From: Escherichia phage SHEFM2K
Sequence record: PQ390715.1
DNA length: 64,000 bases
Strand: one strand, 5' to 3'
Every line of letters starts with the position of its first letter. Position 1 is the stretch's first letter. Position numbers and translations under genes: made by a program. The notes beneath the pieces are model-generated. The model was not told the DNA's origin, did not search any database, and worked only from the letters and a program-made list of their open reading frames with translations. Below are positions 43,041 through 45,461 of the stretch, piece after piece.

Positions 43041-45461
43041 TTAACCTCCTATGTTATTGTTTTGCAATGTAATCAAAAATGTATCTGAAACATAATTCAC
43101 TGATTCATGCGAAAAGTATCCGAATTCAACCGATGTGATTTCGAACTCTACACCTACCATTGTACCATGTTCATTGTTCTGAAGTAAAGTGTTGAAAAAT
43201 GCTTCACCTTTGCCTGGTTGACAATATGCAACTGGAATGATAGGCATGAATTTTTTCTGTATACCATCTTCAATGTATGGGTGATTCATAAATCTTGGGA
43301 CCGTATCAAGCATTTCATCACTGATACTTGGTATCGCATCAACGTATAGACCACGATTTTGTAAATCGGTTGGGTCTTTTACTAAGTTGGTTGTGTCTTC
43401 ACCAATAGCCTGAAAAATATTTTGTCGTAAACCAAATAATTCACCAAGCTGACCGTTGTCGATTTGAGTATATTGACGTGGATTTTTGGATACAGATACT
43501 AAAGAACCTTCAGGTAAAACCTCTCTATATAATAGATCATATTGTAAGTTACCTTGATTGTCAAGTGCTGATATTATTTTATAATTACCCATTACCATTT
43601 TAAATTTTCCATTTGGAATAGTAGTTCCATTTGGGTTAATTATACTATTTCTCAATACTTTCTTGATATCAGAAAGGTTAGTATATGGATACGTTTGACT
43701 TAGGAAGTTTTCTTTCAATAACATCTTCGGTATTTTCTGAAGACCATATCTATTGTCAGATTGTCGGAAAAATAGTTGATTAGTGAATGATGAAGTACTT
43801 ATACATTTAAACCATTCTCTCTCAAATGCAACCGAAGGTAATACATGTGCACTCAAATAATTCTGTCCGAATCCTCTTACAATCTTAAGGTTAAATATTT
43901 TTCTTGCTTCACCACCTTCAGTACTAAATGCTTTAACATAAAACGATAATTTAATATCATCATTTTCACTAAAATCAATACTTTTGGCATATGCAGTTCC
44001 TACAAGATATCCATCTGGTGTCAAATCTATCCCATACTTTCTAATGTCATCACCACCATCTAAAACATACGAAACTTGATTAGAGCTATCAGTTTCAATT
44101 TTAGGATATATACTGTCTCCAAAATATTCACCAACATGTATGGTTCCTAAATCACTATCAGTAATAAAGTTTATATTATTACCTTCTTCTGCGTTTATCA
44201 AAACCCTGAACATTTTTTGCATACCAATGATATTATCACCAAGAGTAGAGTCATAATATCCTAAATCAATCCAATCACTACTATCATAAACGGGCTTAAT
44301 TGTTCCATTATCGTATTCACCACTAATTACGTATGGATACACAACATTATCTTTTAATTGATATAAATGATTGGGTAGTGGTTTTTCTGAAATAGAATAT
44401 ATAGTATCTATGTCTTCAGGACAAACCCACATTTGATATGCTTTATATCGTTGATTGATAGCAAACCTTTCACTTTCTTCGGTGTATGTACTTAATATAT
44501 CAACAATCTCAACTTTAAAATATGCATCACAAGCATCTGAGTCATATAAAAATGTTTGCAATAATTGCCCATTTGGGTTGAACACCATTCCAGTGTCAAT
44601 TAAATTACCATTTCTATTTTGAATATTAACTTTTACTTCTTTGTTTATACCAGAAATAGGCCATGTTGATTGTGCTGGCTTGAATACTGCGAAATCATTC
44701 GTAATATGTTTATCTGGAACTTCAGAAATATCCATGTCAATCAAACGATATGCTGGAAAAAAGACACGAGGTGTAATATCAGTAGTCATGTCAGTACCCA
44801 AAATGAAAGGTCGTCTTCTTCCAAATCCTTGAACGAACAATGTACTGTTGGAGCCATACTCAACATCACCAATACAATAAAGCTTTTTGTCATCACCAAT
44901 CTCAACTCCGGGTGTAACCCAAACTTCTTGACTATCATATGTTATTGATGTATCAGTTAATCCTAGAACACCACTTGGTGAAATATTTCCAAAATACATA
45001 ACATTTACTGCTTGTAAATAAAAATTTATAATTTCTGTATTATTATAGGTTCCATCATTTTTACAATGAATTTTTATAAAATAAACATCTTCACTATTAG
45101 TACTTGCAGATAAGTTAAATTCATTTTTGCTGATTTTACACTTATGCTTACCATTTACTAATTTATTACCAGTTGTACCATCTGAAATAGGAACAAAAGT
45201 ATTTTCGTCATTACCAACATAAAAAGTATAATGTGGTTCTGGATCAAATACAGCACCTGAACTATCCAAGCATTGTATGTTAAGAATCATTTCTAAGTAT
45301 TCATCTTCATTTAATACATAGCTATCATCCGTTGTGCTTTCTTTATTGATACTCAAACGCACAAGAATGTCTTGTCCTTCTTGTATATATCGAGCATCGG
45401 CTTTTATATCCCATCGTGGGGTAAAAGTTGTCATTATAATTCTCCATAGCCAAGCTGCCAT
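43041..45461 (-). CDS. large hypothetical protein (806 aa), Asn/Gly/Thr/Tyr-rich
   Basis: long uninterrupted ORF; beta-rich composition; possible structural or adhesin-like protein. Confidence 0.6.
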   Translation of the reverse strand: MAAWLWRIIMTTFTPRWDIKADARYIQEGQDILVRLSINKESTTDDSYVLNEDEYLEMILNIQCLDSSGAVFDPEPHYTFYVGNDENTFVPISDGTTGNKLVNGKHKCKISKNEFNLSASTNSEDVYFIKIHCKNDGTYNNTEIINFYLQAVNVMYFGNISPSGVLGLTDTSITYDSQEVWVTPGVEIGDDKKLYCIGDVEYGSNSTLFVQGFGRRRPFILGTDMTTDITPRVFFPAYRLIDMDISEVPDKHITNDFAVFKPAQSTWPISGINKEVKVNIQNRNGNLIDTGMVFNPNGQLLQTFLYDSDACDAYFKVEIVDILSTYTEESERFAINQRYKAYQMWVCPEDIDTIYSISEKPLPNHLYQLKDNVVYPYVISGEYDNGTIKPVYDSSDWIDLGYYDSTLGDNIIGMQKMFRVLINAEEGNNINFITDSDLGTIHVGEYFGDSIYPKIETDSSNQVSYVLDGGDDIRKYGIDLTPDGYLVGTAYAKSIDFSENDDIKLSFYVKAFSTEGGEARKIFNLKIVRGFGQNYLSAHVLPSVAFEREWFKCISTSSFTNQLFFRQSDNRYGLQKIPKMLLKENFLSQTYPYTNLSDIKKVLRNSIINPNGTTIPNGKFKMVMGNYKIISALDNQGNLQYDLLYREVLPEGSLVSVSKNPRQYTQIDNGQLGELFGLRQNIFQAIGEDTTNLVKDPTDLQNRGLYVDAIPSISDEMLDTVPRFMNHPYIEDGIQKKFMPIIPVAYCQPGKGEAFFNTLLQNNEHGTMVGVEFEITSVEFGYFSHESVNYVSDTFLITLQNNNIGG

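Follow-up and report, generated by a model that had tools for sequence, protein, structure and literature searches.

Within the jumbo myophages related to RaK2, one protein has been listed several times among the constituents of the virion following mass spectrometry (MS) of phage particles. In phAPEC6, gp158c is included in Table 1, 'Structural proteome of PhAPEC6', as a hypothetical protein of 90.30 kDa with 9 unique peptides and 17.1% coverage (Wagemans et al. 2020, PMC7247149). In RaK2, gp160 was reported as a 'putative virion protein' of 87.7 kDa with 6 peptides and 8.1% coverage (Simoliunas et al. 2013, PMC3622015, supplementary file 3), and CBB_326 was named 'Structural protein' on account of the structural nature of its homologues in GAP32 and RaK2 (Buttimer et al. 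2017, PMC5259590, Table S1). The corresponding protein of phage 121Q, gp54, was also deposited as 'structural protein'. No fold, function or particle position was assigned to this protein in the phAPEC6, RaK2 and CBB papers or in that of Hua et al. 2017 on the 121Q capsid, gp54 being absent from the assignments of the latter and of its supplements. Here, the corresponding gene was analysed in a stretch of 64,000 nucleotides (nt) from Escherichia phage SHEFM2K (sequence record PQ390715.1), hereafter the window, in which its coding sequence, stop codon included, very probably occupies 43041..45434 on the minus strand and encodes a product of 797 amino acids (aa). This product is an already known virion protein of a well-sampled jumbo-phage genus, and its physical presence in purified particles has been demonstrated for at least two phages, phAPEC6 and RaK2. 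The explanation that we tend to favour is that it is a late-expressed, low-copy component of the virion surface in PBECO4/121Q-type jumbo myophages, namely an adhesin-like fibre or decoration protein anchored by its C-terminal end.

Escherichia phage PBECO4 and its relatives share 100% identity with the window. The gene itself is 100% identical at the DNA level in PBECO4, vB_EcoM_G17, SP27 and Sharanji, and 99.8-100% identical across 19 records in all, phAPEC6 included, so that the window can be assigned, from its sequence, to Asteriusvirus, i.e. to the RaK2-like jumbo myophages of the PBECO4/121Q/phAPEC6 type. The protein is 100% identical to its counterparts from PBECO4, G17 and SP27 and to phAPEC6 gp158c, and in 121Q the gene is 92% identical in DNA and the protein 97%. 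Full-length orthologues at 40-54% identity are found in RaK2 (gp160, also named ORF160, 54%), GAP32 (gp321) and CBB (CBB_326, both 44%), as well as in K64-1, Serratia phage BF, and Erwinia, Yersinia, Salmonella and Xanthomonas jumbo phages. Compared with phAPEC6 gp158c, 121Q gp54, the PBECO4 'virion structural protein', RaK2 gp160, GAP32 gp321 and CBB_326, the product of the window is thus the same protein, with nothing that sets it apart. In the same line, residues 10-805 of the 806-aa open reading frame (ORF) align with positions 1-788 of the 789-position profile phrog_13911, 'virion structural protein', with a score of 1467.7 bits. The family is narrow, since a profile of 49 orthologues run exhaustively against 1.84 billion representative proteins gathered only 48 members, none of which is an annotated relative and the distant ones of which share only residues ~390-780. 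The earlier note had considered that clear homology to a characterised non-structural protein, such as rIIA, would speak against a structural role; no such homologue was retrieved from Pfam, PHROGs, PDB sequences or sets of 5.8 billion and 1.84 billion proteins, and Pfam and PHROGs gave only phrog_13911. At E<=1, Pfam returned a sub-threshold DUF6656 match only, and no PDB sequence was matched by phmmer. In one record (OQ708376.1, vB_EcoM_CRJP21, 257120..259540), the identical gene bears the label '5'-nucleotidase'; no match to a nucleotidase family was obtained, and all other records call the product a hypothetical or virion structural protein. CDS0038 is not listed in the JP4 supplement files consulted, and the phiKp24 cryo-electron microscopy (cryo-EM) paper describes a different capsid (T=27, with a single large major capsid protein) and makes no assignment.

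Insight into the architecture of the protein comes from structure prediction, which the earlier note had proposed as a check. AlphaFold2, run on the full chain with the 49-sequence alignment, returned a mean predicted local distance difference test score (pLDDT) of 86.1 and a predicted template modelling score (pTM) of 0.50, i.e. a model of well-folded domains whose relative orientation is uncertain. In this model, residues 1-520 are almost entirely beta, and Foldseek searches against the PDB pointed to cadherin and protocadherin ectodomains, the S-layer proteins SbsB and Sap, and the adhesins SraP and MpAFP. Because the relative domain orientations are arbitrary, comparison of the whole chain gave generic tandem immunoglobulin (Ig) matches only, with a template modelling (TM) score of ~0.1, and the C-terminal half was therefore refolded separately. 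For that purpose, residues 391-797 were modelled with a deeper alignment that includes distant family members, and a compact unit was obtained with a pLDDT of 90.0 and a pTM of 0.85. With high confidence, the protein is thereby predicted to begin with several Ig/cadherin-like beta-sandwiches in a row, which precede a He_PIG-type Ig domain and then a compact module with the fold of 2H phosphoesterases. More precisely, the beta-sandwich array would cover residues 1-420 (44175..45434, minus strand), which are less conserved (majority fraction 0.54-0.59) and presumably distal or displayed. The He_PIG-type domain would span residues 421-522 (43869..44174, minus strand), the most conserved segment (0.74), and the alpha/beta module residues 523-797 (43044..43868, minus strand; 0.66), the latter as a putative virion-attachment or ligand-binding module. 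Residues ~421-522 match single cadherin, Rib and SraP domains in terms of fold; He_PIG itself (PF05345) gives no match in the window's protein at E<=1, and matches the homologous segment of relatives with up to 114 bits. All distant relatives keep the He_PIG-type domain together with the 2H-like module, this C-terminal half being common to the 48 family representatives, and their N-terminal part is replaced by multiple He_PIG domains and/or by a CBM_5_12 carbohydrate-binding module. Among the models of the BFVD library, the module also ends several 'Ig' proteins of uncultured phages and a 1251-aa 'extracellular serine proteinase' of the Agrobacterium jumbo phage Atu_ph07, a fusion on which the Atu_ph07 paper is silent in its main text. 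The beta-rich, structural or adhesin-like nature suggested by the earlier note is therefore borne out, both by MS of virions for the identical protein and its orthologues and by the predicted Ig/cadherin-like string resembling cadherins, S-layer proteins and adhesins; the C-terminal 275-residue 2H-like fold had escaped it.

A C-terminal end that is conserved and an N-terminal array that is exchangeable lead to a reading in terms of anchor and display. The pair formed by the Ig domain and the 2H-like module would dock the protein onto the particle, and the variable N-terminal Ig-like array would project outward as a 'hairy' fibre or an elongated decoration protein. Since relatives carry CBM_5_12 at the N-terminal position, this outward array is proposed to make weak, multivalent contacts with surface carbohydrates. 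In its mode of action, the protein would resemble T4 Hoc or other phage adhesins built of Ig domains, to which it is not homologous. T4 Hoc is composed of three Ig-like domains and a C-terminal capsid-binding domain. As in Hoc and other Ig-domain phage surface proteins (He_PIG, Big, cadherin-like), a modular Ig-like string is found here on a virion protein, the C-terminal part is conserved and the distal part more variable, and relatives carry accessory carbohydrate-binding modules. Unlike Hoc, the protein has a 2H-like C-terminal module and is more than twice as large, no sequence or fold link to the Hoc capsid-binding domain was found, and its peptide counts speak against one copy per hexamer.

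As regards the location on the particle, electron microscopy of phAPEC6 and 121Q has described densities without an assigned gene (PMC7247149; Hua et al. 2017). Each hexamer bears a fibre at its centre, the collar and the distal tail each show 12 elongated proteins, and the sheath carries 'hairy' fibres at three of its levels. In phAPEC6, gp158c was identified by 9 peptides and 17% coverage, compared with 36 peptides and 68% for the 150-copy sheath protein and 75% coverage for the major capsid protein (PMC7247149). Although such counts are semi-quantitative, they speak against a protein present in hundreds of copies, and hence against the fibre at the hexamer centre, the coverage being 17% in phAPEC6 and 8% in RaK2 and the protein having gone undetected in CBB. 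In two of the most distant relatives, the neighbourhood is of tail type: in one of them the gene directly follows a fibre gene with T4_gp9_10_N and Peptidase_S74 domains, and in a second one it stands on a contig with an NlpC/P60 lysin gene. The low peptide counts and these neighbourhoods suggest the neck, the sheath or the baseplate periphery, and not each hexamer of the capsid, which is our best guess for where docking would occur. A Hoc-like capsid fibre, present in one or two copies at every hexamer centre (~270 sites in a T=28 shell), with the C-terminal module sitting on the hexamer and the Ig string forming the capsid 'hair', would account for the parallel with T4 Hoc in terms of Ig-like domains and conserved C-terminal module. 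It nevertheless appears unlikely, as no homology to Hoc or to its capsid-binding domain was found in Pfam, in PHROGs or by fold search, and as the peptide counts suggest an abundance far below that of the sheath or major capsid protein.

Several points weigh against the proposed role at the virion surface. Besides gp158c, the phAPEC6 MS list contains topoisomerase, RecA, SSB and thymidylate synthase (PMC7247149), so that MS detection alone is no proof of a structural role, and CBB's own MS did not detect CBB_326 (PMC5259590). The low copy number is deduced from semi-quantitative peptide counts, and nothing places the protein at a specific site of the particle. The relatives with a tail-type neighbourhood are those that belong least firmly to the family (E-values of 1e-5 to 3e-4), and no carbohydrate-binding module is detectable with Pfam in the window's own protein. 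Finally, the late timing is deduced from a promoter motif, and no transcriptome of an Asteriusvirus was found in the literature. In this context, the protein could alternatively be no external structural component at all, and rather an internal head, inner-body, ejected or co-purifying late protein. In all relatives, the gene is flanked by topoisomerase II and a DnaE fragment, which would be in agreement with this, as would the failure of CBB MS to find the orthologue and the presence, in phAPEC6 particles, of several DNA-metabolism proteins and of an inner body of unknown composition. However, Ig/cadherin-like arrays, together with the CBM_5_12 of the relatives, are typical of surface-exposed proteins, and, to our knowledge, the Ig-like domains of phages are found on external virion proteins. 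In addition, the protein is acidic, with an isoelectric point of 4.6 for the 797-aa form, it bears no DNA-binding signature, and its gene seems to be equipped with a dedicated late promoter. Detection by MS in three phages (phAPEC6, RaK2 and, according to CBB Table S1, GAP32) also argues against an internal or merely co-purifying protein. This alternative is consequently regarded as improbable, and an adhesin-like fibre or decoration protein of the virion surface remains the explanation towards which we lean.

The C-terminal module deserves separate consideration, as its predicted fold is that of a family of enzymes. Two H-x-[ST]-x motifs define the 2H superfamily, and AKAP18 exemplifies a 2H fold that binds nucleotides and has no catalytic role. 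The refolded C-terminal unit matched YjcG, the CPDase of D. radiodurans, E. coli-type LigT, the Arabidopsis CPDase, ASCC1, the poxvirus cGAMP phosphodiesterase, phage Acb1 and MHV ns2. A Foldseek search against BFVD, i.e. with a different program and library, independently retrieved 2H proteins, namely a '2'-5' RNA ligase' of Tenacibaculum phage PTm1 (E 1e-4, TM score 0.65 on the target) and another '2'-5' RNA ligase' of a Hyperionvirus (TM score 0.54). The assignment of a bilobed alpha+beta 2H fold to residues 523-797 in the model is therefore reasonably secure. At the sequence level, by contrast with the superfamily definition, no conserved H-x-[ST] pair exists in these residues among the 49 orthologues. 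The only well-conserved histidines are H718, which is followed by P-Y, and H756. The latter, located in a loop, has a conservation of 92%, and S or T occupies its +2 position in only 23 of the 49 sequences. Neither of them is conserved in a wider alignment of 56 sequences, which holds no near-invariant histidine and in which only R539, R557, D560, D625, Y632, P713, Y737, P740 and G741 persist. Judged from the order of secondary structures, the strands expected to carry the motifs would read LLKEN (572-576) and PVAY (734-737). In addition, no 2H family of Pfam was matched (LigT_PEase, 2_5_RNA_ligase2 and others), a profile search against PDB sequences gave 0 matches at E<=10, and hhalign against a ThpR alignment gave a probability of 0, the ThpR profile being shallow, with members at least 73% identical. 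In line with the earlier note, which had seen no recognisable enzymatic motif, Pfam, the PDB profile search and the ThpR comparison revealed none. Compared with the members of the 2H superfamily (ThpR/LigT, Usb1, plant CPDase, the central domain of AKAP18, ASCC1, Acb1, poxvirus cGAMP phosphodiesterase and coronavirus ns2), the module of the window lacks both catalytic H-x-T/S motifs, has no histidine conserved family-wide and no profile-level sequence similarity, is ~90 residues larger with insertions, and is fused to Ig domains on a virion. It thus looks like a 2H module in terms of fold that fails the catalytic definition of the superfamily, and the absence of both motifs and of any sequence-profile signal leads us to treat it as a probably non-catalytic structural or binding module.

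A functional module would imply that the virion carries an enzyme or a ligand sponge, i.e. a non-canonical phosphoesterase or a nucleotide or phosphosugar binder, whose targets could be phosphodiester-linked (glycan) polymers of the cell envelope or, in an Acb1-like manner, nucleotide immune signals. The match in fold to 2H enzymes that include the anti-CBASS Acb1 and the poxvirus cGAMP phosphodiesterase is consistent with this, as is the precedent of AKAP18 for a nucleotide-binding 2H fold. Besides, a series of polar residues is invariant among the orthologues (R539, R557, D560, K574, E575, N576, D625, Y632, R637, E638, D710, T711, R714, H718 and E755), and the single '5'-nucleotidase' label, in disagreement with the other records, would point in the same direction. 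Yet the missing H-x-[ST]-x pair, in place of which the expected strands read LLKEN and PVAY, the loss of H718 and H756 in the wider family, and the lack of 2H signal in Pfam, PDB sequences and the ThpR profile make such an activity very unlikely. In its most explicit form, a repurposed histidine-less 2H domain would bind, or cleave in a non-canonical way, a phosphorylated ligand, as a pseudo-enzyme or sponge carried by the virion on an Ig-like stalk and delivered at infection, a scenario that we consider highly doubtful.

Turning to expression, the gene seems to form a late transcription unit of its own, which a terminator and a promoter insulate from its surroundings. On the minus strand, the stop codon of the topoisomerase gene is followed, in this order, by a hairpin, TATAAATA, GGAG and the ATG. 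The hairpin, GGAAGACC-TTA-GGGTCTTCC followed by TTGTCCTTT (45491..45511, minus strand), has 9 pairs, 5 of them G-C, and a T-rich tail; it resembles a terminator that would end the topoisomerase II unit, and an equivalent one stands 5' of the orthologues in 121Q, CBB and RaK2. TATAAATA (45473..45480, minus strand), a T4-type late promoter motif, lies 38 nt 5' of the start codon. It is depleted in the window, with 3 copies in 64 kb compared to 11.5 +/- 3.5 expected, all 100 dinucleotide-preserving shuffles having at least 3, which fits selection against spurious late promoters in an AT-rich genome (~33% GC). The three copies are at 25881 (plus strand), 45480 (minus strand) and 57028 (plus strand). 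Both plus-strand copies fall inside ORFs, and the one at 45480..45473 is the only intergenic copy on the coding strand in 64 kb. The shorter ATAAATA is intergenic on the coding strand ahead of three places, namely 53370..53936 (121Q gp45, structural), the block 51403..49051, which holds a KTSC-domain gene and then two MS-detected virion proteins, and the gene studied here; apart from the latter, intergenic copies stand only ahead of other virion genes with MS detection. For CBB and GAP32, the CBB authors independently derived this motif as the late promoter that structural genes probably use, CBB encoding a gp55-like sigma factor (CBB_244) and no gp33 or gp45 homologues that could be found (PMC5259590). 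(N)ATAAATA is kept 31-46 nt 5' of the orthologues in 121Q, phAPEC6, CBB and two metagenomic relatives (L005 and L006), and its conservation thereby extends to orthologues at 20-29% identity. At individual loci the motif varies, being CATAAATA in CBB, AATAAATA in L005 and L006, and AGTAAATA in RaK2; 'Porf_326' is not listed in CBB Table S7, though CATAAATA stands 40 nt 5' of CBB_326. Late expression of the gene may be inferred from this motif.

The late unit would not be restricted to the virion-protein gene. A 103-aa gene (42728..43039, minus strand; phrog_15348, unknown function, no Pfam match) begins 1 nt past its stop codon and is kept directly 3' of the orthologue in 121Q, CBB, RaK2, JP4 and L005. 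Neither a terminator nor a promoter was seen to separate the two genes, and they are probably co-transcribed and translationally coupled. At the downstream end, a replication-type promoter, TGAAATGG-N-TGATATAAT (42232..42260, minus strand), would allow transcription to restart before the next genes; it is of the same class and at the same place as CBB Porf_329, CBB Porf_324 lying 5' of topoisomerase II (CBB Table S6). As deduced from these signals, the virion-protein gene, the 103-aa ORF and probably a DnaE-fragment ORF would form a small late island within the replication-gene block. Replication-type promoters with a non-canonical -35 are seen at 42232..42260 (minus strand) and, as the variant TGAGAC...TGATACAAT, at 48984..49012 (minus strand); they precede the gene at 42186 and topoisomerase II, respectively, and match the 'divergent RpoD-like' class of CBB and GAP32. 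Elsewhere in the window, a hairpin followed by a late-like motif is also present at 39482..39577 (minus strand), 5' of a pair of virion-protein genes (38238..39481), as GGGGTTTGATTCAAACCCC-TTTTG and then TAGTAAATA, the latter containing the same AGTAAATA variant that RaK2 has ahead of its orthologue.

With respect to the genomic position, the topoisomerase II genes at 46985..48949 and 45522..46934 are indeed located directly 5' of the virion-protein gene, as the earlier note had stated. Its description of the surroundings as small early genes is too simple, since the neighbours serve replication or encode chaperones (DnaE fragment, Cpn10-like, clamp loader) and have promoters of the replication type, other virion-protein genes being interspersed among them. 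Within ~8 kb on either side, there are genes for at least six further virion proteins detected by MS, which correspond to gp149c, gp150c, gp159c, gp161c, gp162c and gp167c. More generally, the 62 MS-detected virion genes of phAPEC6 are 'scattered along the genome' (PMC7247149, Fig. 2 legend), and the PA5oct transcriptome paper describes the same scatter of temporal classes in large phages. The succession of topoisomerase II, the virion-protein gene, the small ORF and the DnaE fragment is the same in 121Q, CBB, phAPEC6, RaK2, JP4 and two metagenomic relatives. In the latter, where the gene is 20-29% identical, the kept order reads helicase, IF3, ClpS, topoisomerase II, the studied gene, small ORF, DnaE fragment, Cpn10 and clamp loader. 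Since arrangement and position are maintained even at such a distance, gene order indicates that the location after topoisomerase II is ancestral and normal for the lineage. Given the scatter of virion genes in RaK2-like genomes, the others nearby, the conserved order and what appears to be the gene's own late promoter, there is no reason to call this position unexpected, as had been done.

The limits of the gene also had to be revised. The largest ORF of the window, 43041..45461 (minus strand), encodes 806 aa from its first ATG, in a context of genes with a median of 139 aa (~115 crude gene calls), and these coordinates proposed by the earlier note are correct as far as the ORF is concerned. 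Its start, by contrast, lies 27 nt 5' of the second ATG at 45434 (residue M10), which is very probably the real one and gives the 797-aa product. Several lines of evidence lead to this choice. A Shine-Dalgarno GGAG (45442..45445, minus strand) is positioned 7 nt ahead of this ATG, and the arrangement GGAG-N7-8-ATG is kept in all six compared loci. The start at the second ATG is annotated in the 121Q, phAPEC6 and JP4 records, the PHROG profile alignment begins at residue 10 of the 806-aa ORF, and the upstream ATG is not kept in CBB, RaK2 and two metagenomic relatives. Finally, the computed mass of the 797-aa product, 90.30 kDa, is exactly that given for phAPEC6 gp158c. In terms of composition, the protein had been presented as rich in Asn, Gly and Tyr. 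When the minus-strand proteins of the window serve as reference, enrichment is seen for Gly (7.2% vs 4.7%, z=3.3), is marginal for Asn (7.7% vs 6.0%, z=2.0) and absent for Tyr (5.7% vs 5.2%, z=0.6), and Lys and Glu are depleted, so that this description is weakly true overall and was overstated.

Other features of the neighbourhood may be mentioned. Upstream of the topoisomerase genes, the ORFs 49842..51431 (minus strand, 529 aa) and 49051..49842 (minus strand, 263 aa) abut; both products were detected by MS in phAPEC6, as gp162c and gp161c, and they match the N- and C-terminal parts of a single 845-aa PHROG, phrog_22033. CBB has one 847-aa gene (CBB_322) at the corresponding place 5' of its topoisomerase genes, and a virion protein of phrog_22033 thus appears, from these sequences, to have been split, or conversely fused, between genera. 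The window also encodes a full two-domain IF3 (52579..53082), a ClpS-like adaptor (52020..52565), a KTSC-domain protein (51403..51948) and a Cpn10/GroES-like co-chaperonin (41507..41833), all on the minus strand. The KTSC-domain protein, assigned as such by Pfam, is labelled 'DnaJ-like' in 121Q, and IF3, ClpS and KTSC are kept in the distant relative L005. The 172-aa ORF at 42250..42768 (minus strand), which overlaps the preceding 103-aa ORF by 41 nt, covers only positions 16-95 of the 260-position DNA_pol3_alpha (DnaE) domain of Pfam, and such a stand-alone DnaE fragment is found at the same place in 121Q, CBB, RaK2, JP4, L005 and L006. As for topoisomerase II itself, it is encoded in the window by two separate genes, between which a hairpin is located, RaK2 (796..2505 of the compared locus) has a homing endonuclease between the gp39-like and gp52-like genes, and L005 has a single fused protein of 1135 aa (6147..9554).

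From a broader point of view, the protein is published and MS-verified, and the seemingly odd location of its gene is the normal, conserved layout of the lineage. What is added here is incremental, i.e. the corrected start codon, the late-promoter and terminator architecture, which would explain how a single virion gene sits inside a block of replication genes, and a domain map composed of the predicted Ig-like array, the He_PIG-type Ig domain and the histidine-less 2H-like module. If a ligand-binding or ligand-processing role of this module were true, the 2H fold would have found a novel application in phage particles. In any case, with this domain map the protein becomes a concrete candidate for one of the unassigned fibre or decoration densities on 121Q and phAPEC6, and a testable model is offered to cryo-EM modellers.

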